NCBI GenBank assembly: GCA_973895155.1
Contig: OZ316892.1
Coordinates: 19,913,869 to 19,977,868, forward strand
Source of the DNA: Marsupella aquatica
Taxonomy: Eukaryota > Plantae > Marchantiophyta
Length of the DNA: 64,000 bases
Direction of reading: 5' to 3'
The position numbers were made by a program, and so were the translations under genes. Shown here in pieces: positions 16,426 to 59,376 of this stretch. A model generated the notes under the pieces. It was not told the origin of the DNA. It saw only the letters and a list, made by a program, of their open reading frames with translations, and did not search any database. Every line of letters starts with the position of its first letter. Position 1 is the first letter of the stretch.

Positions 16426-17062
16426 GGTAAATTTGAACTCAAATCCACTTCTAGCTCGAGATTGTCTCGAGCCTTGAGGTCAAGTTTCTGTATTTGATTT
16501 ATCTTCATGTATTCTCCCATAAATTTTACCATAGTTCCTTAATTCTACCTCAAGATCGTCTCGAGCCTCAGATTTTCTTTGTACTGTTTGGATCAGGATT
16601 TTATGGCCCTTGCCAAAATAACAACTGGAAAATTCAATCTCCGGAATTTTTTTGGTTGCTATTTTCGGATGAGAACCTCTTCCGAACTTGGAGACAAATG
16701 TGCATCGATTGGGTCAAGGGACTTCTTCCGGATGGTCTAGGGGAGTTAGGTTCAAAAATAAATGGGAAATCCCGGACAACAAAAATGATTACGCCGGCAT
16801 TGTTTAGATGCTTTGAAGGAGACCTGAGTAGTGACGACATTCTGAAAGTTTTTACTGCCGTTCAACAACAGAAGGTTTTATTGAAGAAAGACCCAGCCAA
16901 CAAATCTGATGTTCAATCAATGAGTGATATGGCTCATACTTTCAAAGTCATGACCAAGCTGAGGGCAAAAATTGTGGAGTACTTCATTTTGAAGTATCCG
17001 GATCGGTTTGCCAATTCACTCACTTGGTTTGAGCTAACTCAATTTTTGCCTGCATTTATGAG

Positions 17063-17300
17063 ATGGTCGGTCGGCGTGGTGGCTTTGTAAATCCGAGAGC
17101 AAAGCCTTTGCGAATGATAAAACGTCTTGTTGATTATTTCTCGTGCCCAGGTCATACAGTGTTGGATTTCTTCTCTGGAGGACAGACATTGAAAGCTTGT
17201 GTCATTCTTGGTCGGGATTGTTTTGTGTATTCGGACACAGCTCAAGAGATGGAATTCATAGAAGCCTTTGCTCAGCTCCTTCATGACAACAAGCAGGTTT
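17063..17300 (+). pseudogene. C-terminal half (motifs X-I-II) of a beta-class N4-cytosine/N6-adenine DNA methyltransferase
   Basis: NPRAKPLRMIKRLVDYFSCPGHTVLDFFSGGQTLKACVILGRDCF matches the N6_N4_Mtase consensus HPTxKPxxLxxRLIxxxSxPGDxVLDPFxGSGTTxxAAxxLGR. I found no DPPY/SPPY motif IV upstream, and the frame changes abruptly at ~17060. Confidence 0.7.
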
Positions 17301-18375
17301 TATATGTGCCACCCAAGGAGTCGTTACCATCTGAGGAAATTACTGCCGGTCCCCTTGTTGTAATAGAAGAGGCGGCCTTAGACATAGCTCCGGTGGAAGC
17401 CAGTGTTTATGAGGAAGTATTTGTGAAGAATTTAGAGCATCGCAAAATGGAGGGCCCAAAAATCACAAGCTACATGGAAGAGGAGGGTGAAATACTGCCT
17501 GAATTTGGAAATGATGCTTGAGATGATCTCGACGTTCCAGGTGTTCCTTCATCGGGTGACCTTGGGGATGCACAACGTGAACAACAGTCTTCAACCTTGG
17601 ATGTTGGCTGGGAATCCACCTTGCTCAATTAGCCAACCAATTCCAAGCCCTCCTCAACTGGATGAGATTTTCTCTACTAAGAAAGCTAGTGGCTGCCATA
17701 CTCCCCCTCAGGACGAGGCAGGTGCATCGTCCTCTCCCTTGGACCAAATGTTTTGCGCTTCAAAGAATAAGCTTGTTTTCACAGATTCTTCTACTGGAAG
17801 CCCCGTAATTCTCCCTTTTGTTAGGAAACCGGGGACTGAAATTGGTAGAACTGGTTACAAATCACTCAAAGCAAGTGCTACTCATTATGTTTGGACTGAT
17901 GGACCGTCAAAAGGTCAACAAGTCAGTATAGAGCAGTCTGAGAAGATTATTCGATCTAGAAAGTATAGGAAGGATAAGTTCAAATTAGTGCCAGTTTGGT
18001 CTGAGCCAGCTCTTGTTGAGACCCTTCTCGGAGGGATAAATTTGGACATCCAAAACCAACTAGGAGATAACCTTCTAGATGAATTTGGGTCTTTCAGCAT
18101 GTGAGGTTGAAACCCAAGTTATTTTGAACAGTCCTGAAATTCAGCCGTCTAAATTATTATGTCTACCTTCACAGAAATAGGCGGGCCCTTACTAGTTGTG
18201 GAGTGCATCGACAATAATCTCCAAAGATGTCCTGAGATTTCTTCAACTACTGACCTTCAACCAACAATAGGTATGACGTTGACTGTTGTTCATTCACTTG
18301 TGATGCTCGAGATCGTCTCGAGCATTCCTTTGTTTTATCTCCCACAATTCTAACATTGGTGTTCCTTCTTTGCAG

Positions 18376-19433
18376 GACCCTTGCCTCCACTTCACGGTCC
18401 GATCAGACGGAAGCTATTGATTCTTGACCTCAACAAAATGTGTTGGGATTCTGTCAAAATGCCAAGTTCCGGACCGCGCCGTAGTGCAACAAGTGTCAAG
18501 GGTGTCCACTGGGGGAGACGTGGAGGGTTTAACTTTATGTATGTTGAGCGACCCCATCTTCACGAGTTCTTAATTGCAGCTTTTTCATTATTTGATGTTG
18601 CCATTTGGACTTGTGCAAGGAAATCCAGGACGGATGAAATGATTCATTTGATCTTCAGTCAAGAAGAGTGAGAGCAATTCAAGTTTATTCTCACACAAGA
18701 AGATACATTCGATACTGGAATCCAGAGGCCTAACATTACCAATGGGAAGGCAAATATTCATTTGAAGGATTTGAGGGTGGTTTGGAAACGTTATGGTGGA
18801 TTATACGACGAAACTAATACACTCCTTCTTGATGACACTCCAATGAAGGCATTTGCGAATCCAGAGAATTGTGGGTTGTTTCCTTCCTCATTTTCGCATC
18901 ACTCCACGGATGATACATTCTTTCCAGAAATACTATGGCCTATGCTCAGGAAATTGTATCATGCCTTCAATCTTCAGCACTACCTTTTTATCAATCATCC
19001 AAAGTGGTCTATGATAAATGTTTTAGCGGACAGAGATCAACAGGCTGCCATTTATGCGTTGTTGACAAAGCGGTGGGGTAGTATGGTATGGGTTCATTCG
19101 GTTATGCATACAGTCTTGGATGTCATAGCGGACAAAATTCCTTGGGATGTCAAGAATGAAGTACAACAATTACCACCAATGGAGGAATTGACGGAGGAGG
19201 CGATCAACGACCTTGCAAAGACGTTAATTGGATATCAATACACAGGACCCTACAGAGACAATCATCGGGGATTTGTTTCAGAAGTCTTGAGGTGTAGGGA
19301 CCTCACCACGAAGTTCTGGAATAGGAAGCCTCTCAATTTCTGCAATCGCGATATGAAATATGACCCATCAGGGTCTAGATTTACTTGCTCAAATGAATTC
19401 TGCGGGGTGGAGGAGCATGAGATTTGGGTCTAG
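18376..19433 (+). pseudogene. FCP1/NIF-family HAD phosphatase domain (transposon cargo)
   Basis: RKLLILDLNK...YVERPHLHEFL...FDVAIWT...KDLRVVW...NTLLLDDTPMKAFANP; one in-frame TGA; GT-AG intron ~18271-18375 links it to an upstream exon. Confidence 0.8.
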
Positions 19434-20135
19434 ATTATCTCGACCCTACACTGAAGAGTTACAATGTGAGTTGTAGATATACATATTCTTACTCAAAAAT
19501 AAGTGAAGCTATGCGTACTATCCATTTGAGTCTAGATGTTGTTGATCCTCTTTTACTTGTAGATATGTTCTCAGAAAAAGGTTATTTGGGTCTCGACCCT
19601 ATACAAAGGGAATAGCTAGAGATATAGATTCAACAACGGGTCAAAATTATGTGGACCCTACATTTGGGTCGAGATAATCTCGACATAGATTTTTACATAG
19701 TAATTGATATACATTCAACAACCGGTCAAAACCATCTAGAGCCTGCATTGGGGCAGACGTGGTCTCGACCCTATAAAAATAGATTTTTTACTTTTATAAT
19801 ACATCACTAGTTTACCTTCCCTGTTTGTGTAACTTGGTTATCACGGGTCATTTGAATTTATTATATTGTCTTATTCTATTTTTTCATTGTTTATATTGTA
19901 TATAATAAGAACACTTTATTGTCTTTTAATTAATAAGTATTAATAATTGATAACTGAATTATTTAATTAATAATTTGGGCATTAGAATTGTAATTTTAGA
20001 CCTCAAAAAGTGTATATTTGGCCACTAAAATATATGCTTTTGGGGAACAAGTTATAGAACTTTTGGGGGTAAAATAATAAATTTGAAGGTCAACTTCTGG
20101 ACTAGAGAAATTCCAGTTTTAATGAATAGGGTGAT

Positions 20136-21984
20136 CCAATTCTTCCCCAAAAACCGGAGGATCATGCTAATGAAGACGTTCCTCCAGCTAGTGCAACGGG
20201 GTCAGAGCACTCCACACCACCTTGACTCTCACCTACATTCAGCAATGATGAACAAGTACCTGATCATGTTCAAGGTAACTCTTCTCTTTGAGTGAATGAT
20301 AAAATCGAGATGCATGCAGACGTTGAGGACTGTCCAGGAGAGTTACCTCCATCGTATATTACTGCAATGGATGATATGGGGGAAATATCACGAAGTCCTG
20401 CTTTACTTCCAATTGAAGTAAGTAGCAATGCTTTAGTTGCTTTGCAGGATTGTAATTCGGAAGATTCTCCTAGTCCAACTCCATATATAGAGGTAGCTTC
20501 TCCCTTACAACTCTCAGCTGAATCCCTAGAAGCATCATGCTCAGAGTTTGTGAGGCTGTCTAAGGCTGATTCAGAGGACGAAATAGTAGATGTAGAAGGA
20601 GTAGCTGAACAACCAACTCCACCTAATTTGGTCACGACATTTCCTATGTGGCCGACCCCCGAAACCACAATATCAGTTGCTTTGATTATGTATGAGGAGT
20701 TAGCAGAAGCATTGGAGAGAATAGGACCTCCTCGGACACTCCCATCTGTTGATTGGGTTTCTCCATCTTATCTTCCAGGAGGAGAGATTGCTTGAGTCTC
20801 AACCCAGTTTACAAACCACTCCATCTCTTGGGCCTTCAAGCAACTTAGGGATACCTAAGACCATGAGTATATCTCCACCCATACCTCTGTTTGGAACACC
20901 TGATTTGGCATTTAGCTCTGCATCAGCTTCTATCTTACTAGATTCAAGCAGAGATAAGGGTACTCGGATATCACTTGTAGATGAGAGTTCACCTATTAAG
21001 GAGAAATTTCAAGTGACACACTCAAAGACCTTGGAAAAGATTGCGACGAGCAACAAGCCGACAAATCTTTCTTGAAGCAACAGTTTTGGAGCAGCAGAAG
21101 CCAACCATTGTATCAAAGAGGAATTCTTCTCCATCCACAGAACCTCATAAAGATGCAAGAAGTCAGGGAGAAGTTTTGCCAAGCATAGAGGTTGAAAGAG
21201 AGTACCTCACTTCAGCACCAATGGACCTGACCAAAGAAAGCCTTGATGCTCCAGCTACAGAAGAGCATGAACTTTTGAGATGTAGTATTCCAGAACTTCC
21301 TGTGCCTACATCTCCATTGTTCCTTCACGCTTGCCTGATAGAGAGTCTGTGATTCCCTCCTCAGACTCGAATATTATTTTCCGTTGGATAGGAGCTCTCA
21401 GTGATGGGGAAGATGAAGATGACCCTAAGATCATCAGAGTACCACCTAAACTTTGGCAACAACAGGTACTTCCTCCACCAGTTCCTATACCTAATCTTGC
21501 TTCTATTCACAGATGGGAAAAGAAAGATTTTTGGATAGCTTTCCGACATTTAGAGATGGAAAGTATATATCAACAACAGCAGATTTTACCTGGTATGTAT
21601 CACGGAGGTATTCGAACGTTGATTCATACATATAAGCCTGGTAAGGCTGTTCCTCCCATCGACAAGGATAGAAGATATAAATTTTTGGAGTATGAAATTT
21701 GGTGTTGGGTATATGTCAGGCTCCGACGTGCTGAAGCTCCTTTTCCGCCAATAGCTCCAGAATTTCCTTGGCCATACCAATACTCTGTCTGGGTCTGCCA
21801 TGAAGGGTATGCTATTCTGCATAAGTACGAGAAAGAGCTTGTTAAGTTACGAGAACAGTTGATACGGAATAAGGCTATGAACTCTTCTGCTCAAGGGTAT
21901 AAGTCACTTAGGAGATTAGTAAGGTTACCTACTCCTCCTTCATGGCCGGACGTAGTCACTCTAAAAGGGTTATTGAGTAGATAG
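20136..21984 (+). pseudogene. Gypsy extra ORF, 3' part (S/P/E-rich linker and W-rich C-terminal domain)
   Basis: In frame with 7524-7803 once the insertion is removed; continues through ORFs 20292, 20749, 21041 and 21331 with stops and frameshifts. Confidence 0.55.
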
Positions 21985-22095
21985 CAGATTTGTATTTAAC
22001 CACTTCGTGTATAAGATTTGAAAGGACATTTATTCCCTGGAGTATAAACGGATCTGATTGAAGTACTGAGCAGCACTCATTCTATTTGAGTCAAC

Positions 22096-22464
22096 ATGTG
22101 GACTGTAAAAGCTACCATGGATTGCTGTGATCCTCTACCCCGTGCATTTCAGCATTCCCTTGAAGGGGAGATTAAATTGGAAGGACACACCATTCAACAA
22201 TTTGTTATTGACCCAGGCTCTGGAATAAATTTACTGTCCCACAGACTGTTTCATCAATTAGTTCGCCAACAAGTTCAGCCCATATGTGCTCAAATCTCAA
22301 TCGATGGACGATTAATTCAACTTTGGGGTAGAGTAAAACAAGTGTCATTACAAATTGGAGAAGAATTTTATGACCTCAATTTTTATATTGTGAACCCCAA
22401 TGACAGCCATATTCCATCAATGGTCTTGAGTACCACTTGGATTCCGAAGCCAGAAGATTTTTGA
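22096..22464 (+). CDS. Stand-alone retropepsin-like ORF downstream of the extra ORF
   Basis: GEIKLEGHTIQQFVIDPGSGINLLS...MVLSTTWI fits the retroviral aspartic protease fold, but has DPG instead of D(T/S)G. Confidence 0.55.
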   Translation: MWTVKATMDCCDPLPRAFQHSLEGEIKLEGHTIQQFVIDPGSGINLLSHRLFHQLVRQQVQPICAQISIDGRLIQLWGRVKQVSLQIGEEFYDLNFYIVNPNDSHIPSMVLSTTWIPKPEDF

Positions 22465-23446
22465 TAAGGAATGCAGCTCTGGTCTTCAGTCGCAGCATGT
22501 TTGTCTTGTGCGGACACAACGAGGTTTAAGTGGAGGGCTATGTGGAACGGCGGCCTCTACATTTTTCTTGGAAGTCGGTTTATTTTTAGCACTTTTCTAG
22601 TATTTGTTCTATTCGGGACGCTTTTCAGAACCGTCTGCCACCACCGACCCTTTTTTGACCGATGCTTTCAGAAGCGTCCACCCTGATCCGGTGATTCACC
22701 CTTGACGCCTTCAACAGCGTCAACTTTTTCTGAGTACTTTCGACTAGCGACGCTACCAGAAGCGTCCATCCTAATACTGACGCTTTCCGAAGCGTCCGCT
22801 ACCTTAGATGTATTCTGCTACTCGGTCCTTCCGATACTTAGACTTAGTTTTCAAAATAGACTACCAATATAGTAGTATTTTGCCAACCTCGAAGTACTTA
22901 TGCTGTACTTCTCTCATGCTTAGTTTGACTTGAAGAGGCATGGCTTTTCATGTTTCCTTCATTTTAGGATTCTAGGACTTATAAGACTCACTAGGATGCT
23001 CATTCAGACTAGAGAGAAATAACATTCTATTCCGAAATGAGACTTCTGAAGTAATTTCTCCTCCTTCCATTGTAACAAGGCATTGTAGAGTGTTTTGTAT
23101 GGAAGTAAAGCTGCATATGTTTGAAATTGTAGATGAATTCAAGAGATTCCTTTGGTGATTGAATTCAATTGCAAGCTTTTGAGACTTATATTGAATTCAC
23201 TGTTGGGCTTACTTGTGAAGTCAAGATTCGGTAGCCAATTCAAGAGTTGTTGTTTGATATGTGAAGAGTAAAGTTTGGTTCTCAGAGTATTCAGTACCAT
23301 TGCTTTGTTTGTGGAATATGGCTTAGTGTTTTGACTGAATTGTGTATCGCTGATGTCAAACCATGTTGCAGGCATTTTAAGTCATATCGTTACATTTGCA
23401 ACCAGAAAAATACTTGTTTATCAAATGGAGAATTCCTTATCATGCA

Positions 23447-23777
23447 TGTCACACCATTATGAGTGGTAGTATAGGATATCGGACTATGTAGGTTTGAGGC
23501 TTTCATATGTGTGTTATCTAAGTGGTTTAGGGTTAGTGTATGTTTGTGAGGGATAGTTATATATCTCTTTGTGTTGGCTCAAAGGTCTCATCTTTTGATG
23601 TTGAGCCTTTCGAGCACAAACTCTAGCGGCTATGGTGTGGCTGTCTAGGTTGTGTGTACGTAACGTGGATTCCTTGAGGCGCAAGGTGCGTTTGGCTTGA
23701 CATAAGTGTGTGATCGCGTCAGACAAGATTGTGTGTTTGATTGGCATCAATCGTTGTTCGATTATTCTTGAAGATTA
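23447..23777 (+). repeat. Terminal repeat segment A1 (331 bp)
   Basis: Near-identical to 32399-32729 (one substitution noticed). Confidence 0.95.
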
Positions 23778-24440
23778 CATCAAAAGATCAGCTTCAAACT
23801 CTGTTGTGCCGACTGTGTAGACAGAAGTTTGATTTCATTTTGGTTTTGTTGTTGACGATTCGTGGTAGCTCGGATCGGGTGTTGTTATTGAACGGATCGC
23901 TGGTATCTCGATCTATTGCAAGTTGGTGCGACACTTGCGTAGTTCAAGTGAAGCTTCAAGTTGTTGTTGCTAAGTTGTGGTTTTGGAGTTGCGGTCTTCA
24001 TCGATATGCAGTGTTGCATCGTGGAGGATTGATTGTGTGATCGACAAGCGAATGTTGCTGTCGACAATTGTGTGTGAGACAGATGATGGTGTCTGGTCCT
24101 ATTTTGTGAAGGGAAAGTAGTCGGATGTGCGACTCTTTGTGGTTTTGATTGAGGTGGTTCAATTGGGAGCCCGATAGTTGATTATGTTTACAATTTTTGT
24201 AGGATGCAGTTCTGATTTGCATCAAGTTCCTTGTTGATGGATAGTGCGTTTCTATGAAGGAAACGACGTTGAATGTTGGTGAATTGTGTTGGCGGCGCGC
24301 GACAAGATAAGGCACCGCAGAGAGGCAAGGCGGCTGTGACTTAGGGCACAGAGGAAACGACAAATACTGAATAGTGATTTTACCGTCAATTGCGGCGTGT
24401 TTAGCGCATGACTTGAGCAAAGAGAGTTTTGGTGGGGAGG

Positions 24441-24861
24441 CACCCACAGCCCGCGGCCTGTGACCAATTCATCTTGGTTGTTGGAGTTGGCACCCACAGC
24501 CCACGGGCTGTGACCTCTTGCAGCTTGGCTAGCACTCACAGTCCACGGCCTGTGGCCTCTCATAGTTTGGTTGTGTGGGCTAGCACCCACAGCCCACGGC
24601 CTGTGGCCTCTCATAGTTTGGTTGTGTGGGTTGGCACCCACAGCCCACGGCCTGTGGCCTCTTGTAGTTTGGTTGCGTGGGTAGTCACCCACAGCCCACG
24701 GCTTGTGGCCGATTCATCTTGGTTGTGTGGGTTGGCACCCACAGCCCACGGCCTGTGGCCTCTTGAAGTTTGGTTGCGTGGGTAGTCACCCACAGCCCAC
24801 GGCCTGTGGCTGATTCATCTTGTTTGTGTGGGTAGGTACCCACAGCCCACGGCATGTGGCC
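24441..24861 (+). repeat. ~50-bp tandem array (9 units) of CACCCACAGCCCACGGCCTGTGG in the 5' UTR
   Basis: Units at 24441, 24491, 24533, 24584, 24635, 24686, 24736, 24787 and 24837; imperfect dyad CCACAGCC/GGC(C)TGTGG. Confidence 0.9.
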
Positions 24862-24939
24862 TAGGGTTTTGGAATCACGGAGTCTTCCAATAATGCAAAG
24901 CTACTTGGTGAACAACGGACTGGTTTCACTCGAAGTGGA

Positions 24940-25908
24940 GTGCAGTTTCGGCCAATGACATTGCTAGCAGATACTAGTAGAGCTTCAGATAGTGATTCTG
25001 ACGAGGGCTCTGTAGTCAACTCTCCTCATCATCAGGTAGTTGCACCATTGTTGTGGGATATGGAGGAGACGTATGGGTCCACTAAGGGCCCTAGAAGATA
25101 CTCTGGTGCAGTTGGCACAATTGATTTGGATGATTTCATCCAAGAGTTTGATACGTGGTGTGATATGCAAACGATGCATAACGCCACATTGTTTACACCT
25201 TTCATGGCATGGAAAGGGTTGTTTCAGCATTTGGAGGGTCCACCCATGGATGATTACCATGAGTTTTGGAAGACCCATTTGGCTGATATTGAGATATGGA
25301 GACAACATTGGTCACCAAACTATGTGTCCATCACTTACGGCACAAGTGCGGTTTCTCAACCTGTTGCCCCGGCTGTTGCTTCTTCTAGTAGCACTAGCCA
25401 GAGTGGCACTCCACCAGTATCCACTGTTACTCCTACCAGTGCAATTGTGGGTGGGAGTGGAGTTGTGCCAACATTTAACCCTGTGGTGAAGTTCTTTGAT
25501 GTGTTGAAGCAGAACTACCAGGGTGTGAGAACTGATAAGTTGAAGGGTCTTCAAGATTTTCAGCGCAAGACTGGAGAGAGTCTACGCGAGGCATACACTC
25601 GTATGCGAAGATTAATTACAATCACCAAGGGAGTGACAGAGGCCCAAGCAGTTCAATTTTGGTATGCAATTTTGGATAGAGAGTTGCGGCGTAGAGTAAG
25701 AGACGCCACTCTATTGAGGGATTCAGATCCCACATTGGCTATTGTTTTTGCACTAGCCGAGCGCATTGAGCTCAATATGGTGAATGAGAAGGTGGTGACT
25801 TCCGGATTTGTCAAGGAAGGCTCACCAAAGGTTGCAATCTACACCCACACCGCAACCTACTATAAGGAAGAGCCAGAGGGAGAAGCCTACAACACCGGAA
25901 TCTACTAG
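24940..25908 (+). CDS. gag: Gag (capsid region)
   Basis: RYSG...DLDDFIQEFDTW...LQDFQRKTGESLREAYTRMRRL is a retrotransposon gag signature; continues by frameshift into the zinc-knuckle frame. Confidence 0.8.
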   Translation: MQFRPMTLLADTSRASDSDSDEGSVVNSPHHQVVAPLLWDMEETYGSTKGPRRYSGAVGTIDLDDFIQEFDTWCDMQTMHNATLFTPFMAWKGLFQHLEGPPMDDYHEFWKTHLADIEIWRQHWSPNYVSITYGTSAVSQPVAPAVASSSSTSQSGTPPVSTVTPTSAIVGGSGVVPTFNPVVKFFDVLKQNYQGVRTDKLKGLQDFQRKTGESLREAYTRMRRLITITKGVTEAQAVQFWYAILDRELRRRVRDATLLRDSDPTLAIVFALAERIELNMVNEKVVTSGFVKEGSPKVAIYTHTATYYKEEPEGEAYNTGIY

Positions 25909-28801
25909 TCAGAGACCTGTGCCCTCCTATGCTGGACAGCAGTCAGGATGTTGGACTTGTGGTGGGGATCATGCACAAAGATATTGCCCAGATAATAGAG
26001 GGTCCGGAGGGGCATCTATGCCCGATCAACGATTATGTGATCATTGTGGAGTTTCTGGTCACACCAAAGATAGGTGTTTTGTACTCCATCCTAAACTACG
26101 ACGGGGAGGATCGCGTACATATGATCAGGGAAGAGGAGGTAGAGGTGGTGGTGGTGGACGAGGGATGCCACATGCAGGGAGACAACAAGGTGATGCTCTT
26201 GCCACTACCATAGATCCAAAAGATGCAAAGATTGCTCAATTGGAGCAACAACTAGCTGCCATGGCCAGTTCTCAGGTTAGACCTACTTCTGGTGATGGAG
26301 CTTCTACATCTTATGGAGCTGACGGAGACTTGGCCACCATGGGATTCATGTGTGGCACTGCCCATGTTGATGCATCGGCAGCTTTGACTAGAGGAGCAAC
26401 CAAAGTCCTTGAGCCCCGAGGAGCAATGGTAGAGTTGGATCCTCAAAGGGGGGAGGTTCGTCAACAAACAAAGCTTCCTCAATCGTTTACGTTGTTAGAG
26501 GCAGTTCACACTACCTCTATGAACCCGGTTAAGACAAATCCAAGTGTTGATAAGTCGGTAAAATTGGATGATGTTGCAGCAGGTCTAGCAAGTACCTTGT
26601 TGGGGGCGGCCACTAACATTGTGCGCACCCCGTTATTTTCAGCAACAGATATATTGGCATTGGGAGTTAGTCCAGCTGAAGTGTTCAGATTGGCGGCCAC
26701 ATTATGTGAAGACACTCTAGTTGTTGCTTCTCGTGCAGAGACAATGCATAATTCTGAAGTTGTGGAGTTGATTCCACCTATTGCTAGTGGTGAAACATGG
26801 CAAGCAGCAGCGGCGAGGTTGATGGAGTTACCAGCACGCCCTGCCTTTGAGAGAACTAGGTTTAAACCTAGTGTGGTATCATTGGATAATCGGAGTGGTA
26901 TCTTCCGATTAGTTGGGCCTTTTGGAGCAATATACCAGCCAGAACGAGTGTTATTGGATACTAGTGCTCAACCCTTGATGTTGGGTAAGTCTGCGATACA
27001 AGGATTGGGATTGTGTCCAGATGATTTGGAGGAGTGTCCTTTTCCCATTCAGACTTCATTGGGAGGACCTACACCCAAACAGCATATCACCAGACGAGCA
27101 CTTGAACTTAGGATTCAAGAGGATCATCCAAAGGATAACTCACGGATCCAGGCTCAAGCTATTTTGACTAAAGCTGAGTCGTATGATGTGTTAGTGGGAT
27201 GTACAGTACTTTATCCTATGGGATTTGTTCTTGATTTTTGGGATGAGTCGGTGTCGTATCGACCCGATTGGCAATCTGGAGATGCTCGATTGAGCCAATT
27301 GCCAGTGCGATTTAGTGGACCTGTGGGAGGTCCTAAATCTGCACCATTGTCTTTGGCAGCATTCAGTAGTTTGATTACTGGATCTGATGAGTTGATTGAA
27401 GGTAATGCACATGCAGCAGATGTTCCGGCAATGGAGGAGCCACGTGAGGAACACATGATGGGTGTATTACCTGTTGATACCATTGTGGCACCAGTATGGG
27501 GTACTGGAGAGGCCTTGCAACAAAATGCGACCCAATTGATACATGATGCCTGGTGTCATGCTTTTACACCGGAGTCAGGAGCACAACAGTCTTTTGCAGA
27601 TGGACCGGTGACTCTTTCACCATTGGATACCACTCCTATTGTGTGGCAGTATCCAGAGGAGGGTATTTGTTTGTTGGATTTATTTGGTGGGATTAACATT
27701 GGATTGGCTACTATTCTTCAAGCAGGAATTCCTGTGCGTTGTTACTTGTACGTGGAAAATGATGAGATAACACGGAGGATCTCACTACGTCATGTAGCGA
27801 TGTTGGTGGAACGTTATCCACATTTGTTGCCAGTGGATGCCGTTTGTGGTTATCAGCATGCATTGCCTGCTGATATTTCATTATTGGGGGTGGATTATTT
27901 GGATCGTGTTGGCCCCATTGATTTGGTGATTGCGGGTTGGCCATGTCAGGGTCAATCTCGGGCTGGAATTGGACATGGATTTCATGATCCAAGATCTGCA
28001 TTATTTTGGGAGATGTTACGTGTGTTGCACCATCTCCAGATGCATCAGACACATTCTCCTGCATACATTTTGGAGAATGTCCCATTATTGGGTGATGATC
28101 GTCATCGAATTGTTGCTAGTATTCATCAGGTTCGATCTTGGATTGGACCTGTTGTGTTATTGGATGCTGCACGTGTGGGTTCTCATGCACATCGTCCACG
28201 ATTATGGTGGACTAACTTGTTACCATGTGAGGTCTTAAAGCGAGCATTTGATGGTGTACCTCGCTTAGCAACCTTATTGGTGGATAGTATTTTGGATCCA
28301 GGGCGTCGTGCACAAAGTGTTACCCAATCTGATCGAACCCCATTGGCAGTGGTGAATATTGTTGGGCGTCCGCGTTGTGCATTACCCACTTTTGTGAGCC
28401 ATTCTGCTTCATACGCATTTCGAGCAGGTGGCCCTGGACTTGTGTTGGATACAGCTCTACAACAACTAGTAGAGCCTACCGCTAATGAGAGAGAGCGGGC
28501 TATGGGATTTTTGACTAGCACCACTGCAGTGGCCTCGGTGTCGGAGCATTCACGTTGTCAAGTCCTTGGTCAAGCCATGGATTTGAATTGCTTGACTTGG
28601 ATTATCAGCTTGGGATTAGCTGAACAATTGCAAATGCGCACTTCTAATGTTACAGATCGTCCATTGGTGAGCTTGCGGCCTATCGAGACAGTAGCGGCCA
28701 CAGTTGGGGGCGAGCAAATGATTGATGGACCTATGGCAAGATTGGCCAAGGTAGAACATATTGTTGAGCAGAAGGAGGTTGCTCAAACTATTGATAAATA
28801 G
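25808..28801 (+). CDS. Gag zinc knuckles + aspartic protease + C5-cytosine DNA methyltransferase (DNMT domain ~27660-28620)
   Basis: Knuckles CWTCGGDHAQRYC and CDHCGVSGHTKDRC; protease VLLDTSA. DNMT motifs in canonical order: I LDLFGGI, II YVEND, IV AGWPCQG, VI ILENV, VIII HAHRPRLWWTNL, IX ERERAMGF, X LGQAMD. Confidence 0.92.
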   Translation: MSRKAHQRLQSTPTPQPTIRKSQREKPTTPESTSQRPVPSYAGQQSGCWTCGGDHAQRYCPDNRGSGGASMPDQRLCDHCGVSGHTKDRCFVLHPKLRRGGSRTYDQGRGGRGGGGGRGMPHAGRQQGDALATTIDPKDAKIAQLEQQLAAMASSQVRPTSGDGASTSYGADGDLATMGFMCGTAHVDASAALTRGATKVLEPRGAMVELDPQRGEVRQQTKLPQSFTLLEAVHTTSMNPVKTNPSVDKSVKLDDVAAGLASTLLGAATNIVRTPLFSATDILALGVSPAEVFRLAATLCEDTLVVASRAETMHNSEVVELIPPIASGETWQAAAARLMELPARPAFERTRFKPSVVSLDNRSGIFRLVGPFGAIYQPERVLLDTSAQPLMLGKSAIQGLGLCPDDLEECPFPIQTSLGGPTPKQHITRRALELRIQEDHPKDNSRIQAQAILTKAESYDVLVGCTVLYPMGFVLDFWDESVSYRPDWQSGDARLSQLPVRFSGPVGGPKSAPLSLAAFSSLITGSDELIEGNAHAADVPAMEEPREEHMMGVLPVDTIVAPVWGTGEALQQNATQLIHDAWCHAFTPESGAQQSFADGPVTLSPLDTTPIVWQYPEEGICLLDLFGGINIGLATILQAGIPVRCYLYVENDEITRRISLRHVAMLVERYPHLLPVDAVCGYQHALPADISLLGVDYLDRVGPIDLVIAGWPCQGQSRAGIGHGFHDPRSALFWEMLRVLHHLQMHQTHSPAYILENVPLLGDDRHRIVASIHQVRSWIGPVVLLDAARVGSHAHRPRLWWTNLLPCEVLKRAFDGVPRLATLLVDSILDPGRRAQSVTQSDRTPLAVVNIVGRPRCALPTFVSHSASYAFRAGGPGLVLDTALQQLVEPTANERERAMGFLTSTTAVASVSEHSRCQVLGQAMDLNCLTWIISLGLAEQLQMRTSNVTDRPLVSLRPIETVAATVGGEQMIDGPMARLAKVEHIVEQKEVAQTIDK

Positions 28802-28825
28802 CAACGAGCGACTGACTCTTCCATC

Positions 28826-29005
28826 CATAGCCCACGGCTTGTGGCCTCTTCATCTCCAAAGGAAGACGTCACAGTTTTGATGGAGAGTCACAGCCCACGG
28901 CTTGTGGCCTCTTCAACTCCAACGGAAGATGTCACAACTTTGAAGGAGAGTCACAGCCCGCGGCTTGTGACCTCTTCAACTCCAAAGGAAGATGTCACAG
29001 CTTTG
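28826..29005 (+). repeat. 63-bp in-frame tandem repeat (x3) between DNMT and RT carrying the same CACAGCCCACGGCTTGTGG motif as the 5' UTR array
   Basis: Motif at 28826, 28889 and 28952; encodes SHSPRLVASSxPxEDVT. Confidence 0.9.
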
Positions 29006-31531
29006 ATGGAGAGTTGGGAACCACAGATTGGTCCTAAGTTTACCGGGAGGGAGAGACGTTGCATGCATCAATTCTTGAAGAGTTATTGGAATTGTTTTGC
29101 ATTTAGTATGAAGGATTTGGGGACATTGAAGGGTCCTGGTATTCAGATCGAATTGGCTAGTGATGCGCCAATCTTTCGACGACCGTATCGGTATAGTGAC
29201 ATGGAGAGGGCTTTGATCCAGAGTAGAACTCAGGATTTGTTGGAGGCTGGTTTGGTGGAGATCTCATACGGGGAGTATGCATCTGCCACAGTGATGCCAG
29301 CCAAGAAGGATGTGCATGGCAATTACACAGATAGGCGAATGTGTGGTGATTATCGACCTATTAATCGTCAGACAAAATCTGATTGATATGCCATGCCAAC
29401 ACCGGAGGAGATCTTTGATGTTGTGGGGCATGCAAAGATATTTAGTTCGTTGGACCTCAAGGCGGGGTACCATCAATTGCCAATTAGGCATTCGGATAGA
29501 TCCAAGACAGCATTTTGGGGAATTGATTCTTATGGCAAAGATCATTTGTATCAGTGGTTGTTCTTACCATTTGGGTTGAAGAATGCACCAGCTGAATTCC
29601 AAAGAGTTATGGATCGAATTCTTGCAGGTTTGGATTTTGTGAGATGTTACATTGATGATATTTTGGTCTATTCTTCGACTGTGGAAGAACATCAAAGACA
29701 CTTGCAGATTGTGTTGGAAAGATTGAGAGAACATGGATTGAAACTCCATCCTGGCAAATGTAAATTCTTCCAAGACAAAATTGAGTATTTGGGCCACACT
29801 ATCTACCCAGGAGGATTGGGTGTGCAAGAGACTAAGGTGGAGGCCATTACACAAATTCCTCGTCCTACTGATGTGAGTAGAGTTCGTGCATTCTTGGGAT
29901 TGGCAAGCTATTATAGACGGTATGTGAAAGGATTTAGCCAACTTGCTAAACCTTTAACTATACTCACTAAGTTGGACCAGGAGTGGATTTGGGGTGACGA
30001 CCAAGAGCATGCTTTCCAAGAATTGAAGGAAAGATTGGCGTCAACACCTATTTTGAGAAGACCCGTTTCGGGATGACCATTTCAACTACACACTGATTGG
30101 AGTGGAGTAGGACTTGGAGCAGTGCTGACTCAGAAGGATGATGAGGGGAATGAGTTTGTTGTGGCATATGCCAGTAGATCAAACAATTCAGCAGAGGCTA
30201 AGTATAGCTCGTATGAGGGAGAGTGTTTGGCAGCTGTGTGGGCTGTGGCACATTTCCGTTGCAATTTGTTTGGTAATCCGTTCACCTTGATCACTGATCA
30301 CCAGCCCCTCAAGTGGTTAATGGAGTCTAACAAGCTTACAGGAAAGCTTGCACGATGGGCATTGTTGTTACAAGAGTATGATTTCCAGGTTGTACATAGG
30401 CCTGGTAAAGTGAACTTGGATGCGGATGGGTTGAGCCGTAATCCATGTACCAGTCAAGAGGATGAGACTAGAGCTCGATGGCATGATGAGTCGGATAAGG
30501 AGAGTGTGCCAGGATGGCATGCATCTGCCTTTCTTTGTTGGGTTCCAACATATAGTGGATCTATGGACTCTACTTCATTGGATGGGGTAGACGTTGAGTC
30601 TTCAGATATGGATGTTGATGAGGTAGTTTTTGGGCAGCAAGATATTCATAACGACAAAAGAGTGTTGGAATATTTGCGTGGTGGCTCCATTGTTGGCAAT
30701 TGTGATGCTAAGGAGCGAGATAGGGTTCTACAACGAGCCAAGAGGTTTCGATGGGAAGGAAACCATCTTTTGAGGATACTACGTGATGGCAAGGTGTTGG
30801 TTGTACCAAAACCGTCACAACGAGTACGTTTGGTGCGACATGCGCATGAGGAGTTGGGTCACTTTGGTGTGAAACGCACATATAGCTTGTTGCAGACACA
30901 GTATTGGTGGCGTGGTATGCGCACTGAGGTCCAACAATTGATTGCTAAGTGTGTGGTATGTGATCAAGTGCGAGCATCGTTCAATGCTCCCACTCCCCAA
31001 TTGCATCCGCTATCGATAATGGGTTTGGGATATCGATGGAGTTTGGACTTTGCTGGTCCATTACCTCTTACCCAACGTCATAATCGATATATTTTGGTTA
31101 TGGTGGAGCACTTCTCTAAGTGGATTGAACTAGTGGCATTGCCAGATAAAGCTAGTGGAGGAGTGGCTATCACATTTTTGGATCGAGTACTCAGTCATTT
31201 TGGAGCACCAGCTGAGGTGTTGACTGATCAGGGTACGGAATTTCGTGGAGAGTTTGAGGGTTTGTGTGAGAAAGCTCTTATTGATCATCGTACTACTTCT
31301 CGTGATCATCCTGAGGCAGATGGATTGGCAGAGAGAGTTGTACAAACCGTGAAGAGAGGATTGCGTAAGTATGGCTTGCAGGTTGGTCATTTGGGAGATT
31401 GGGATCTCCAGCTACCTTGGTTAGCTATGGGCTACCGTTTTAGTCGACAAGCATCACTTGCATCCTTCTCACCTTATTTCTTGCTCTATGGTAGAGAGCC
31501 AGATTTGCCAGCGCTCGGCTATTCGTCGTGA
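28841..31531 (+). pseudogene. pol: Pol: reverse transcriptase, RNase H, DDE integrase (in-frame stops)
   Basis: RMCGDYRPIN, SLDLKAGYHQ, LPFGLKNAP, YIDDILV; RNase H YASRS...TDHQPL; HHCC and integrase core SLDFAGP/TDQGTEF/GLAERVVQ. TGA stops at 29384 and 30074. Confidence 0.95.
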
Positions 31532-31612
31532 TGTGGCAATTGTTGTGGATTTGGACGATCCCGATGTTTGGGTCAAGGTGTGTTAAGAAGGGCATGAGTT
31601 TTTGAGAGAGTC

Positions 31613-32086
31613 ATGCCCATGGCCTTTGACAACCTTGCCATTGCCCAACATCGTGATACTTTGAGGTATGCCACTATTCGTGGAGGAGGTTATCGTGCGA
31701 GGATTCGACGGTTTCATCCTGGTGATTTTGTTTATTTGCAGCAAACAACACCCACGACACTTGATGTGACCGCAGGTTGGACAATCTTACGTGTGCGTGA
31801 AGTGTTATCTTCTGGTGTCCTAATGTTGGAAGGACGTGATGGTATGGTTTGGAAGGATCATGTGCGCAATTGTGCACCATGTCATCTTTCAAACATTGAC
31901 GGTACTGTAGATCCAAGTTTGGCTCATGTTCGTGCCGGTTTGAAGTGTATGTTGTGTGGATCTGCTCAAGGAGCAGCCACTATGTTGATTTGTGATAAGT
32001 GTTCTAGAGGATGGCACATGTCGTGTTTAACACCACCATTAGAGGTGATTCCTAGTGGATCATGGTTGTGTCCTCAATGTCGGTGA
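31613..32086 (+). CDS. Integrase C-terminal region ending in a PHD finger
   Basis: CMLC...MLICDKCSRGWHMSCLTPPLEVIPSGSWLCPQC is a C4HC3 PHD. Confidence 0.9.
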   Translation: MPMAFDNLAIAQHRDTLRYATIRGGGYRARIRRFHPGDFVYLQQTTPTTLDVTAGWTILRVREVLSSGVLMLEGRDGMVWKDHVRNCAPCHLSNIDGTVDPSLAHVRAGLKCMLCGSAQGAATMLICDKCSRGWHMSCLTPPLEVIPSGSWLCPQCR

Positions 32087-32260
32087 AGCCGACTAGTTAC
32101 CATTGGTATTCTCATGGAAGGTATAGATTGCAGGAAGGTGATCGATGGGGCTCACTTGCACCCGGCCTCCTGATCTCCACACTTAAAAAGGTGTATATCA
32201 ACCTTGTAGAACTTATGGCTAGCTAGAGTTAGGGGACCTCACTCCCAGCTAGGGGGGCGA

Positions 32261-32865
32261 TTGTGAGTTTTGGACATGTGTGGATAGGAGTTCCACTTGC
32301 ACTCCATTCTCTTATGTTTGTAATGTTGATTGTGACTATGCTTAGATATGTGTGACAAGCGATGTATGTTGTGTAGCGATGTTTATGCGCACGACAGCTG
32401 TCACACCATTATGAGTGGTAGTATAGGATATCGGACTATGTAGGTTTGAGGCTTTCATATGTGTGTTATCTAAGTGGTTTAGGGTTAGTGTATGTTTGTG
32501 AGGGATAGTTATATATCTCTTTGTGTTGGCTCAAAGGTCTCATCTTTTGATGTTGAGCCTTTCGAGCACAAACTCTAGCGGCTATGGTGTGGCTGTCTAG
32601 GTTGTGTGTACGTAACGTGGATTCCTTGAGGCGCAAGGTGCGTTTGGCTTGACATATGTGTGTGATCGCGTCAGACAAGATTGTGTGTTTGATTGGCATC
32701 AATCGTTGTTCGATTATTCTTGAAGATTATTGTGAGTTTTGGACATGTGTGGATAGGAGTTCCACTTGTACTCCATTCTCTTATGTTTGTAATGTTGATT
32801 GTGACTATGCTTAGATATGTGTGACAAGCGATGTATGTTGTGTAGCGATGTTTATGCGCACGACA
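32261..32865 (+). repeat. 3' terminal repeat block B1-gc-A2-B2
   Basis: PPT AGGGGGGCG at 32251. B1 32261-32396, GC, A2 32399-32729, B2 32730-32865. B1 and B2 differ by one substitution noticed. Confidence 0.95.
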
Positions 32866-33201
32866 TGCAATTTTATGTAGTCAGGAGAGAAATCAGTGAG
32901 TTATGAGACTTAGTTTATGTCTATACTAAGACCATAGTCCTTTCTAAAGGAGTGGCAATAGTAGACTATAGTTTTCAAACCTCAAATTGTTTCCTCTCTC
33001 ATCCGTTAAATAGAAGTTCATTTACTTTGGTGTTTTGTTTATTTGATTTTTTATTGAGAAGTAAGAAAAGTATGAGCTGAGAGCTCTAGATCACTCAGAG
33101 TGATAAATTCATTCAATCCATTCCTATTTTGTTCTTAAAGGGATCGAAACTCGAGTCTTTAAGTGAAAAGATTAACTTTTGGTTCTTCCATCTATACGAC
33201 A

Positions 33202-33947
33202 GTGTTCCTTTGGCAAGGCATTTTAATATTTCTGTAGCATTTTGTCCATCAAATGCGACAGAAAAAAGTTTGATGTCCAAAGTTCCTTATGAAAGTGTTG
33301 TGGGTAGTTTAATATATCTCATGGTATGTACCCGACTAGACATAGCTTATGCTGTTAGCAAGGTAAGCAGATACATGGAAAATCCAAGAAAAGTTTATTG
33401 GAAAGCAGTGAAATGGATTTTGCGCTACATCAAAGGTTCCACTGAGAAGGGTTTATTGTTTGATGCAAACTCAAACAATATGAAAATGCTTCAAGGTTAT
33501 GTGGATGCAGACTATGCAGGTGATCTGGATAGGAGGAGATCAACAACTGGATATGTATTTACACTTGCTGGTGGATGCATTCGTTTGAAGTCTACTCTTC
33601 AAAAGTGTGTTGCAAAGTCTACTATGGATGCCGAGTATGTAGCGGCAATAGAAGCAGCATTAGAGACTATTTGGTTGAAAAAGCTTGTTAGTGAGATGGG
33701 TTTATCATAAGATTGTGTGTATCTTCATTGTGACAATCAAAGTGCAATTTACACTGCCAAGAATCAGGTGATGGATGGCAGGGTAAAGCACATTGATGTT
33801 CGCTATCATTTCATCCGACAGACATTGTCAGATGATGAATTTGAGCTTGTCAAGATTGATGGAAAGCTTAATCCAACGGATGCTTTTACCAAAGTATTAG
33901 ACTCCAATAGTTTTTCAAGGCATTTTAATTATTTACAAATATTGTAA
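33202..33947 (+). pseudogene. Ty1/Copia RT C-terminus and RNase H fragment
   Basis: VPYESVVGSLIYLMVCTRLDIAYAVS...GYVDADYAGDLDRRRSTTGYVF...LHCDNQSAI...KHIDVRYHFIR. Confidence 0.92.
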
Positions 33948-34379
33948 ATATAGAGTTAACCAAGAAAATGTCTCTATATGAATACTCCATCCAATGGTTT
34001 ATCGAATAGGGGTAGTTCTAGTTAACCCTTGAATTAGGGGGAGGGCCTTTTGGCCCTACTGTCTTGAACTTCCCGCAGAGGAACTTGTAAGGAAAGTAAA
34101 GCTCGGGGGCCTCACTCTAAAAGGGGTCCCATAACACGCTCGACGTTTTTAGCTATTAAACACCCTAAAAAATAAAAAATAAAAAAGTTTTTTTGAACTA
34201 TTTTTTTACCCCTATCTTTTTGGAATATTCTAAAAATATTCCCAAAAATCATTTCTAAAACCCTATCTTCTCTTATAATTCTCAAAATTGGATTTAAAAA
34301 ACCCTAATGTTCTTCTATAGAAATTTAAAAGTATTCTTCTCAACCCAATAAACAAACCCTAGGTATACTTAGTTTCGCG

Positions 34380-36007: not shown

Positions 36008-38349
36008 ATCTTACTAATAAAGCGCAAACTGCAGCCTACTCTTCACATTCAAGCTAGGATCTAGAGTGAAGCCTCTAGACCGTAACTCTATGGTTATCAT
36101 GTGCATGGAAAAAACTTATGACATGACTATGATGTATGTACATGCCAGTTTTATGTGATAATTTCTAAATATTTAGATTAAAAAAATATAGGCAATATAT
36201 ATGGCCTCACCACAACATATGTACATAGAACATGGATGTGCATACAAAAATCCTGATGTGCACATCAAGGAGAATGATATATTACATATGACTATTAAAA
36301 TGATGGATTTTTTTATCATTTCATTAACCTTCAAAAAATATGAATAGATAATATATTTTGATAATTCTTTTATTGTCCTCTCCACTATTCACGTTCAAAC
36401 GGGTAGTTGGGGCTAGTGACGGAAATGGGTCCAACCTCTTCAAGAAAATATATAGCATGCTTGCATCGCTCTATGAATAGCCTAAGCTGGATAAGTTATG
36501 AATATTGCAATATATATTCATCCAGGGCCACCACTAGTTGCTTTGTGTTTCATATGTATTTGGAATTTGATTTTGCGCAAAATATATATTAGGATGAATA
36601 ACCAATACCAAATATTTTTGAAAATTGAATCCATTCCTCATATTGAGCTGGGAGTGGCTAACTCACTTACTTCCTTTCTAATGTACAAATGAATATTACT
36701 TAACCTACTTTGTTCTTATTGACAAAGCTTAATATGAGTAATGAATTCAAAACCATATATATAATTAGGAAATTGAATTGGTGGGCCCAGCAAAGAACCT
36801 GACATTCACAATACCCAACAATATTTCATGGTATATCATTGGCAATATAACTGGATGATTTTAGATGCAAATAATCTCAGGACGCGCCATAAATTCATAA
36901 TACTTACCCATCAATATTGCAACAATACCAAACCGTACATTGATAATAAGTGAGGATTCCCCATTTGGCAATAGAATTGTGGATATATGGTTGGGATGCA
37001 TATCATCCCAAAATTATCCATGGCTGTCAAATTACCACTAGGAAACATCAAATTGCTCAAAGAACCAAATCCCACATAATATGTACAGGAAAACAGGGGT
37101 ATTTTCAACCCAATTCCCTAAGATGGTGTCTAGAATCCCCACTTCTTTGTTATTGTACACTGATTTACCAAGTCAACTGAGGAAATCCCCAACTCCCACA
37201 GACATGCATATCCCCTTGTGAATGGTGGCTGGTTTGGTTGTAGACCCTTGTACAAATAAGCCATGTAATTTGGTTTTGATAAAGTTCTTACAAACATATT
37301 AACCATCAATTAGGCCAGTAGGCACATTATGTATATGTCGCTTATATCTTCTTCTTCAAAAAGTGGTTAGTACTATTTAGCCGTGACAAACCAATTAGTT
37401 TGAGCTTTTGTTTTGAGGTTTTATTTCCACAAAAATGACATATCACACACAACAAAAAATAGAGTCATTTTATTGGTTGAAATGAAAAACTTAAGAATTT
37501 TCTCAGAATAACAATAAGATCTTTTAAATACAATTTTGAGAGTTATAAGAGCATTATGGTGCTTCTAATTAACCACTTTTTTGGAATAAATATTCTACAA
37601 GTATTTTAAATTTATAGGGATTGAAATTTTATTTTATTTTTTACATTTTAGGAGGTCCTAGACCTAAGAACATCACAAATAATGAGAAAGCCTCCATATA
37701 GTTCCATATAGTGATAATGCGGTCCAAGCCTCCATATAGTTCCATATAGTGAGACTACCAAGCTTTTGCTTCACAAGTGAAAAGCCAGAATGCCTTACCG
37801 AAGACTGTCCAGTAACAAGACTATAGACTGCCCAGCAACACAACTGAGGGAAGATCACTGTCGAGCAACACAACTAAGACTCAGGGGAGATGTCACAGGA
37901 GACCGCTGGTTAGGTGTATTTTCTTGAGAGGTTGGACCCATTTCCGTCACTGTCTAGCCCCGACTACCCGTTTGAACGTGAATAGCGGAGAGGACAATAA
38001 AAGAATTATCAAAACATATTTTTTTAAAGTTAATGAAATGATAAAAAAAATCCATCATTTTAATAGTCATATGTAATATATCATTCTCCTTGATGTGCAC
38101 TGTATCAGGGTTTTTGTATGCACATCCATGTTCTATGTACATATGTTGTGGTGAGGCCATATATATTGCCTATATTTTTTTAATCTAAATATTTAGAAAT
38201 TATCACATAAAATTGGCATGTACATACATCATAGTCATGTCATAAGTTTTTCTCATGCACATGATGACCATAGAGTTACATTCTAGAGGCTTCACTCTAG
38301 ATCCTAGCTTGTGAAGAGTAGGCTACAGTTCCCGCTTTATTAGTAAGAT
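36008..38349. mobile_element. Foldback-like structure with ~440-bp inverted arms
   Basis: 36008-36450 is the reverse complement of 37917-38349 with few mismatches; non-coding spacer; a degenerate copy of the arm end lies at ~62086-62152. Confidence 0.75.

Positions 38350-48810: not shown

Positions 48811-59376
<10,566 letters not shown>

Follow-up and report, generated by a model that had tools for sequence, protein, structure and literature searches.

The window examined here, 64,000 nucleotides from Marsupella aquatica (Marchantiophyta; assembly GCA_973895155.1, contig OZ316892.1, positions 19,913,869 to 19,977,868 of the forward strand), contains at 23447-32865 a Ty3/Gypsy retrotransposon with a DNMT3-like cytosine methyltransferase (DNMT) and a DDE integrase tipped by a PHD finger. 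It belongs to an ancient family of such elements that spans the green lineage, and there is little doubt that it is a bryophyte (likely liverwort) Gypsy of the KnitGypsy-Dnmt3 kind, first described in Klebsormidium. The anatomy of the element and its relatives suggests that it integrates from a circle with two long terminal repeats (LTRs), which would be cut at a palindrome inside the LTR, and that the proteins encoded after the DNMT are expressed by readthrough of a conserved stop. A probability of about 0.6 is given to this model. Methylation of the complementary DNA (cDNA) and targeting by the PHD finger are less sure. An earlier note, made by a model from the letters of this DNA alone, had pointed out the methyltransferase and the PHD finger. 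It recognised neither the split-repeat layout nor the conserved stop after the DNMT, nor that this copy is dead.

Split Repeats and a Proposed Route of Integration

The element begins with TGTCAC and ends with CGACA, with TG..CA termini, and is flanked by a 4-bp target-site duplication (TSD). Contigs from three of the four public runs (X2, X3 and X4, not X1) contain the empty site and join 23440 to 32864, thereby skipping 9423 bases: the 9419 of the element and the 4 of one TSD copy. Because the joint skips exactly these bases, the ends of the element are exact. The terminal repeats had been described as near-identical and the insertion as young. The repeat copies differ at 2 of 468 positions, and the insertion is therefore young; the repeats, however, are not LTRs but are arranged as A1-coding-B1-A2-B2 (Table 1). 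The whole layout is also found in L030 and L039 (L numbers denote metagenome loci), and the B-A-B right end alone in L017 and L062. A perfect 4-bp TSD was present in four of the five elements with both ends. Truncation of an ordinary LTR pair was rejected as an explanation, since the TSD borders A1 on one side and B2 on the other, and the layout recurs at four other loci. In the window, L030 and L039, the base that precedes the primer site and the one that follows the polypurine tract are connected at the A2/B2 junction, which recurs in L017 and L062. A2 and B2 meet via one shared A, just as the ends of a linear cDNA would once joined.

The polypurine tract AGCTAGGGGGGCG lies directly before B1. 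Its motif also precedes B1 in L002, L004, L010, L016, L017, L030, L039 and L062, and a similar one does so in L020, L027 and L060. Positions 144-155 of A1, about 30 nt after a TATA-like box, are complementary to a 12-nt site at the A1 end. In the Sphagnum-like family, a 17-nt complement with different letters was found at a like place, and the complement passes the shuffle control in 7 of 11 left ends. This pairing closes the minimum-energy RNA folds (z -2.4 and -2.7). In Tf1, the 5' end of the RNA primes its own cDNA synthesis. A complement of 10 nt or more in the 5' LTR is used as a predictor of self-priming for Tf1/Sushi and plant Tcn1 Gypsy elements (Neumann 2019, PMC6317226).

The palindrome at the B1/A2 junction consists of the two element ends and 2 nt. 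The exact 10-mer was counted 12 times in 507 kb, where 0.3 copies would be expected, and these copies belong to about nine distinct elements. Counts of GACANNTGTC (43 vs. 6.5) were set aside in favour of the exact 10-mer, as one coding-region match recurs in many near-copies. DDE integrases use recessed CA ends, and a 2-LTR circle is usually thought to be a dead end. The integrase of foamy virus is reported to cleave the palindromic LTR junction of 2-LTR circles (PMC1180852).

The cycle suggested by these landmarks would run as follows. The RNA would start inside A1 near 23590 and end in A2; its 5' end would pair with the site after A1 and prime itself, as in Tf1. The plus strand would start at the polypurine tract, which would give a linear cDNA with LTRs of the form B-GC-A, and the joining of the two cDNA ends would create the A2/B2 junction. 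The integrase would cut GACA-GC-TGTC of the upstream LTR after the CA of each strand, leaving 3'-CA ends with 2-nt 5' overhangs, and would insert the cut DNA with a 4-bp duplication. As the palindrome lies inside the LTR, the integrated form would be permuted.

The Conserved Stop after the Methyltransferase

The DNMT had been placed in frame between the protease and the reverse transcriptase (RT). It does share the frame of both, but a TAG at 28799 divides it from the RT, and this stop is conserved in relatives. The window was compared with 80 metagenome loci; in this set, the window included, the DNMT is followed by an RT within 1.2 kb in 29 and in the same frame in 23. In 21 of these 23, the DNMT is followed by a TAG or TAA whose next codon is CAA or CAG, and it is the sole stop in 10. 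The same CAR context was found at 10 of 218 decay stops and at 2 of 30 other linker stops; the possibility that the stop at 28799 is a product of decay was rejected. Two further loci whose contigs end without an RT (L033 and L065) have the same stop context. Proteins point the same way: 37 of the 41 with a protease before a full DNMT end at most 181 residues past the DNMT, two of those inside the start of the RT. The DNMT therefore closes the Gag-protease open reading frame (ORF).

In tobacco mosaic virus (TMV), the context CAR YYA was found to be essential for readthrough, which reached 32% in that assay (PMC2754532). L020 and L022 read TAG CAG TTA, and L027 and L053 read TAG CAA TCA, all of which match CAR YYA. 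Judged from sequence, the stop after the DNMT is likely a readthrough signal of the TMV type, and the DNMT would thus likely be made at the level of Gag. The Gag-protease-DNMT polyprotein would end at a leaky UAG-CAR, readthrough would yield RT-RNase H-integrase-PHD, and the amount of DNMT packaged would match that of Gag.

The Methyltransferase Domain

All the motifs of a complete C5-methyltransferase that the earlier note had listed (PCQ, ENV, RxRxW, ER..GF and motif X) were located, with GWPCQG at 27935, ILENVP at 28067, HRPRLWW at 28190, ERERAMGF at 28487 and GQAMDL at 28568; a further motif, LLDLFGG, lies at 27671, and Pfam DNA_methylase matches the domain with an E of 5.7e-12. The closest solved relatives are DNMT3A, DNMT3B and DNMT3C. 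Profile scores were 87 bits for DNMT3A, 57 for the tobacco DRM-type structure 4onj, 42 for DRM2 and 38 for M.HhaI, and DNMT3A was also the first match of a single-sequence search of the PDB. A structure model (pLDDT 91.5) has DNMT3A as its top fold match (E 2e-19, TM 0.70, 22% identity).

DNMT homologs in Calypogeia and most of those in Marchantia proteins are 60-70% identical to the domain, and one in a Sphagnum gene model is 48% identical; these genera are among the sources of 54 longer homologs. A search of 1.84 billion representatives gave 550 matches at E < 1e-30. Among the best 150 of these, 107 carry further retroelement domains, and 43 that consist of the DNMT only were left unclassified. 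Named family members include Closterium, Scenedesmus, Tetrabaena and Monoraphidium. Relatives that carry the DNMT include ones named Closterium and Scenedesmus, and a Coleochaete transcript carries RT-integrase-PHD; integrase relatives were found in Klebsormidium (P0063, with PHD), Closterium, Riccia and Tetrabaena. No DNMT named Klebsormidium was among the retrieved DNMT homologs, and no viral contig encoding a relative was found. The DNMT is thus present in relatives from bryophytes to chlorophytes, and the condition set in the earlier note, its absence from sibling copies, did not refute the reading given there.

Neutral evolution, which the same note had named as a way to refute its reading, was not found either. 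The ratio of nonsynonymous to synonymous substitution rates (dN/dS) of the DNMT was 0.14 for L020/L022 (dS 0.25), 0.13 for L020/L027 and 0.14 for the window and L002, a pair near saturation. Distant, near-saturated pairs gave 0.14-0.32. By these values, the DNMT is under purifying selection. Three pairs of decayed Sphagnum-like copies have a DNMT dN/dS of 0.52-0.74, above that of the RT (0.23-0.47), an observation on the other side. The comparison covers 10 pairs, none of them of the algal type.

Phylogenies of the DNMT and the RT, which had also been proposed, match for the bryophyte group. In both trees the window is placed with Calypogeia, Marchantia and the Sphagnum-like family in a supported group of 10 rows (RT 100/93; DNMT 100). 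The RT tree holds relatives only. The DNMT tree has no host DNMT3/DRM row and no Klebsormidium DNMT row, and it omits 82 algal-type rows picked at random and as many as 8 Marchantia rows that are near-duplicates. A second architecture, in which the DNMT follows RNase H and precedes the integrase, was observed in L037, L038, L040, L042-L047, L049, L050, L056-L059, L064 and L069-L071. These loci form one RT group with Tetrabaena (100/100) and lie on one side of a DNMT branch (91), and Scenedesmus is named among the long proteins similar to them. This suggests that the DNMT moved within the polyprotein.

In the proposed cycle, the DNMT would most likely methylate CG in the new cDNA.

The PHD Finger

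The statement that the integrase ends in a C4HC3 PHD finger was borne out by Pfam (Table 1). The closest PHD fingers in the PDB are those of CHD4, KMT2D, DPF3, ATXR5, KDM5A/B, PHF21A, UHRF1, BAZ2 and AIRE, most of which read unmodified H3 tails. At the presumed cage position, where K4me3 readers have Trp, the window and nine of nine matched relatives have Gly. The finger would likely bind H3 tails without K4 methylation and may steer insertions away from active promoters. The Klebsormidium nitens integrase with a PHD finger (P0063) is 57% identical, and the finger is therefore not a land-plant addition. Retroelements with PHD fingers and chromodomains have been called widespread (PMC6673714). 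In this element, no chromodomain was found by Pfam after the integrase, and the PHD finger stands in its place.

Alternative Explanations

Several observations weigh against the proposed integration and expression. No significant primer complement was found in 4 of 11 left ends, and the palindrome is present in only 6 of 17 algal-type loci (four distinct elements), although some contigs may be too short. B does not precede A1 in any of the 11 left ends (10 insertions), and the mirror form A-B-A-coding-B was never seen, a bias that is unexplained. Against a simple version of the circle, four insertions end in a single B (A-coding-B: L004, L010, L016 and L019/L029), that of L016 with a perfect TSD; they may have arisen from 1-LTR circles, through direct cutting of linear cDNA or through recombination between B1 and B2. 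The single orientation would be explained by a route like that of PAT and Ngaro, where a full-length transcript would span A1 to B2, the cDNA ends would be joined on the template of the internal B1-GC-A2 copy, the integrase would cut the new junction only, and A2/B2 would be an inherited fossil of one ancestral circle insertion. This route is considered unlikely. The A1-B1-A2-B2 layout is indeed that of PAT, Ngaro and Viper (PMC4157794), but the TATA-like box and the self-primer lie inside A rather than at its start. In addition, the primer site adjoins A1 and the polypurine tract adjoins B1 in two families with barely alignable repeats, and a 4-bp TSD is present. Pfam found no tyrosine recombinase in the six plus-strand coding ORFs or four further ORFs of the element, and rve is present. 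For the stop, 16 of the 21 stop-bearing loci belong to one family, so that only about five independent families are represented. The full CAR YYA was seen in four loci only, the window having CAA CGA and the Sphagnum-like family CAA CCC ATG; L066 lacks the stop and L060 is decayed. A shared stem-loop after the stop was not supported, as no RNA structure is common to the regions that follow it (z -3.4, -0.9 and -1.6). Since the Sphagnum-like family has an ATG two codons past the stop, which fits reinitiation too, the stop may instead separate two ORFs, with RT-integrase made by reinitiation or from a spliced RNA. Ogre elements splice out stops between protease and RT, and the departure of the window from CAR YYA would fit such an arrangement as well. 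It is nevertheless improbable in view of the four loci with the exact CAR YYA, which have one stop without an ATG next to it and a frame that is open before and after.

The role of the methyltransferase can also be read differently. It may act on host chromatin near the insertion or on the RNA of the element, or it may only bind, with the cDNA left unmethylated. The observed/expected ratio of CpG is 0.57 in the element and 0.60 in the rest of the window; it is not depleted beyond background and there is therefore no trace of self-methylation, so that CpG depletion was rejected as such a trace. The Klebsormidium DNMT was inactive in yeast (PMC5890265), which likewise weighs against methylation of the cDNA, and the domain is found in two alternative positions within the polyprotein. 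On the other side, all 19 aligned domains retain the catalytic Cys, Glu and two Arg, the modelled fold is closest to DNMT3A-DNA complexes, related DNMT3 domains of SymbioDIRS methylate CG (PMC5890265), and a fusion to Gag would put the enzyme in the particle. A role other than cDNA methylation is accordingly regarded as doubtful, if somewhat less so than the two alternatives above. Far less probable, and largely refuted, is the view that the DNMT is a recent neutral capture of a host DNMT3 or DRM gene and that the repeats reflect a one-off rearrangement or an assembly error. This copy is broken, and the DNMT tree is without a host DNMT3 row. However, the distribution from bryophytes to chlorophytes, the purifying selection, the matching RT and DNMT groups, the structural identity to DNMT3A of only about 22%, the recurrence of the layout in four other loci and the exact empty site all speak against it.

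State of This Copy and Its Features

This copy is dead, with premature stops at 29384 and 30074 and indels near 25830, 31513 and 31588. Its protease motif contains DTS, while relatives have DTG or DSG. It may derive from an already defective template. By Pfam, the domains stand in the order DNA_methylase, RVT_1, RNase H, integrase H2C2, rve and PHD. A 21-nt motif, of which no copies are expected, occurs nine times in the leader (24445-24861) and three times just after the DNMT stop (28826-28972), and is possibly a packaging or translation signal.

Table 1. Features of the element at 23447-32865, in window coordinates.
Feature	Position	Strand	Basis
TSD TGCA, 4 bp	left copy 23443-23446; right copy 32866-32869	.	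sequence; empty-site joint in X2, X3, X4
Repeat A1, 331 bp, starts TGTCAC, left end	23447-23777	+	1 mismatch to A2
TATA-like box, about 30 nt before predicted transcript start; putative function	23558-23564	+	TATAAA at like place in L001, L024, L039
Predicted RNA 5' end (self-primer), complementary to 23777-23788	23590-23601	+	12-nt match, 1/2000 shuffles
Primer-binding-site-like sequence directly after A1, does not begin TGG	23777-23788	+	complementarity
Leader array, units of about 51 bp, 9 copies of 21-nt motif	24432-24874	+	repeat analysis
Gag, two zinc knuckles (25949-25972, 26036-26062)	24955-26213	+	62% identity to Marchantia P0004/P0005; frameshift near 25830
Aspartic protease, VLLDTSAQ at 26948	26819-27298	+	motif comparison with relatives; no Pfam match of its own
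DNMT3-like C5 cytosine methyltransferase, unpermuted motif order	27593-28630	+	Pfam; PDB sequence matches; structure model
Conserved in-frame stop TAG then CAA, closes Gag-protease-DNMT ORF; likely readthrough site	28799-28807	+	comparison of loci
Three 63-bp repeats after stop, with the 21-nt motif of the leader	28826-29014	+	repeat analysis
RT, YIDD at 29648, premature stop 29384; start approximate	29150-30073	+	Pfam RVT_1, E 2.5e-33
RNase H, premature stop 30074 just before	30077-30379	+	Pfam RT_RNaseH, E 2.5e-35
Integrase: H2C2, DDE core (D 31046, D 31226, E 31331), C-terminal part; indels near 31513, 31588	30809-31900	+	Pfam Integrase_H2C2 and rve
C4HC3 PHD finger and terminal stop	31946-32086	+	Pfam PHD, E 7.6e-12; PDB matches
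Polypurine tract, directly before B1	32247-32259	+	comparison of loci
Repeat B1, 137 bp, ends CGACA	32260-32396	+	repeat comparison
Palindrome GACA-GC-TGTC at B1/A2 junction; putative integrase attachment site	32393-32402	.	12 exact copies in 507 kb
Repeat A2	32399-32729	+	repeat comparison
Repeat B2, joined to A2 via one shared A, right end CGACA	32729-32865	+	repeat comparison

Insertion Site and Neighbourhood

The insertion target (22090-23446 and 32866-33950) is itself repeated DNA with a high read depth. It sits between a protease fragment and an RT/RNase H remnant that we take to be Copia-like from its motifs. One target in repeated DNA says little about insertion preference. Between 3,308 and 14,734 contigs per public run align to the stretch; as most of these are less than 99% alike, the element family is abundant there.

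The claim that the element lies beside clearly land-plant genes was confirmed. An ISWI exon, located 22 kb from the element, matches two Calypogeia fissa proteins at 97% and 96% identity, Sphagnum at 95% and Riccia and Marchantia at 89-92%, which points to a bryophyte, likely a leafy liverwort. The exon is part of an intron-rich gene for an ISWI/CHR11 chromatin remodeller at about 52000-59400 on the minus strand. Fragmented ORFs with DUF7869 (E 5e-38) at 8914-12633 on the minus strand are likely a DNA transposon. A 2.3-kb element at 36008-38349 has long terminal inverted repeats (pieces 86-97% complementary), and no ORF of at least 130 aa was found in it. Liverworts have 4mC enzymes of bacterial origin, which makes a Pfam N6_N4_Mtase match at 17033-17518 on the plus strand (E 1.8e-7, above the cut-off) of interest. 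It lies in a broken ORF cluster at about 14800-21984, together with a NIF-like ORF at 18672-19430, and this cluster is possibly a second mobile element with an amino-methyltransferase.

Relation to Known Systems

The order protease-RT-RNase H-integrase, the DDE integrase with H2C2, the TG..CA ends and a TSD within the range of 4-6 bp are those of Ty3/Gypsy elements; a pair of full direct LTRs at the ends is absent. KnitGypsy-Dnmt3 of Klebsormidium nitens was described with Gypsy domains and DIRS-type repeats, and methylation of the cDNA was proposed for it (de Mendoza 2018, PMC5890265). The present element shares with it the Gypsy domain set, an unpermuted DNMT3-like domain with catalytic residues inside the Gypsy coding region, purifying selection (Ka/Ks under 0.2 in three pairs here) and the A-coding-B-A-B repeats. 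It differs in that its host is a land plant and in that a conserved stop ends its Gag-protease ORF after the DNMT, while the authors of that study placed the DNMT in one ORF with the RT. The main text of de Mendoza 2018 contains no mention of PHD, readthrough or Marchantia and gives no mechanism for the repeats; its figures or supplement may show a PHD or the ORF structure. The Klebsormidium kind is called streptophyte in PMC12344493 and in the preprint on EpiLTRs (bioRxiv 10.64898/2026.05.21.726589), which treats the streptophyte Gypsy-DNMT3 as a separate, earlier described acquisition. EpiLTRs are likewise LTR retrotransposons with a DNA methylation writer and a chromatin reader, but they carry DAM, a DNMT that is sister to DNMT4, and a chromodomain. 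A DNMT-bearing Gypsy in Klebsormidium and the idea of cDNA methylation are thus already published, and the writer-plus-reader idea has a precedent in EpiLTRs.

Split direct repeats were defined for elements with a tyrosine recombinase (PMC4157794). PAT, Ngaro and Viper, including SymbioDIRS-Dnmt3, share with this element the A1-B1-A2-B2 repeats, an internal copy of the joined ends and, in some, a methyltransferase, but the present element differs by its DDE integrase, its TG..CA ends and its TSD of 4 bp. Tf1/Sushi and plant Tcn1 chromoviruses are Gypsy elements with predicted self-priming from a complement in the 5' LTR (PMC6317226); they have ordinary LTRs and a chromodomain, in contrast to the split repeats, PHD finger and DNMT found here. 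The text of that survey mentions neither PHD nor methyltransferase. In foamy virus, as in the proposed model, cutting of a palindrome in a circle gives the processed ends (PMC1180852). In that virus, however, the palindrome is formed where the two LTRs meet and the LTRs of the provirus are normal, whereas here the palindrome is internal to the LTR. Searches of the open-licence literature showed no paper on members in land plants, the conserved stop or the palindrome/circle route.

Implications

A wider picture can be put forward tentatively, as a plausible one that falls short of an even chance. It is that of a class of DDE-integrase elements spread over the green lineage, with attachment sites in the LTR interior, in which integration would occur only via a 2-LTR circle, DNMT3 would be made at Gag stoichiometry, new copies would arrive methylated, and the PHD finger would aim at H3K4-unmethylated chromatin.

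Liverworts and mosses are thus among the hosts of the family. One of them is Marchantia, a genetic model in which the role of a retrotransposon's own methyltransferase is testable. In annotations there, many DNMTs of the family appear as hypothetical host genes, which can skew inventories of DNMTs, and the split repeats escape finders of LTR pairs. The anatomy gives a testable route by which a DDE integrase may yield DIRS-like repeats, namely cutting inside the LTR of a circle. If readthrough is true, the conserved stop would set the dosage of the DNMT far above that of RT and integrase. Both the integration route and a stop that sets dosage would surprise specialists.

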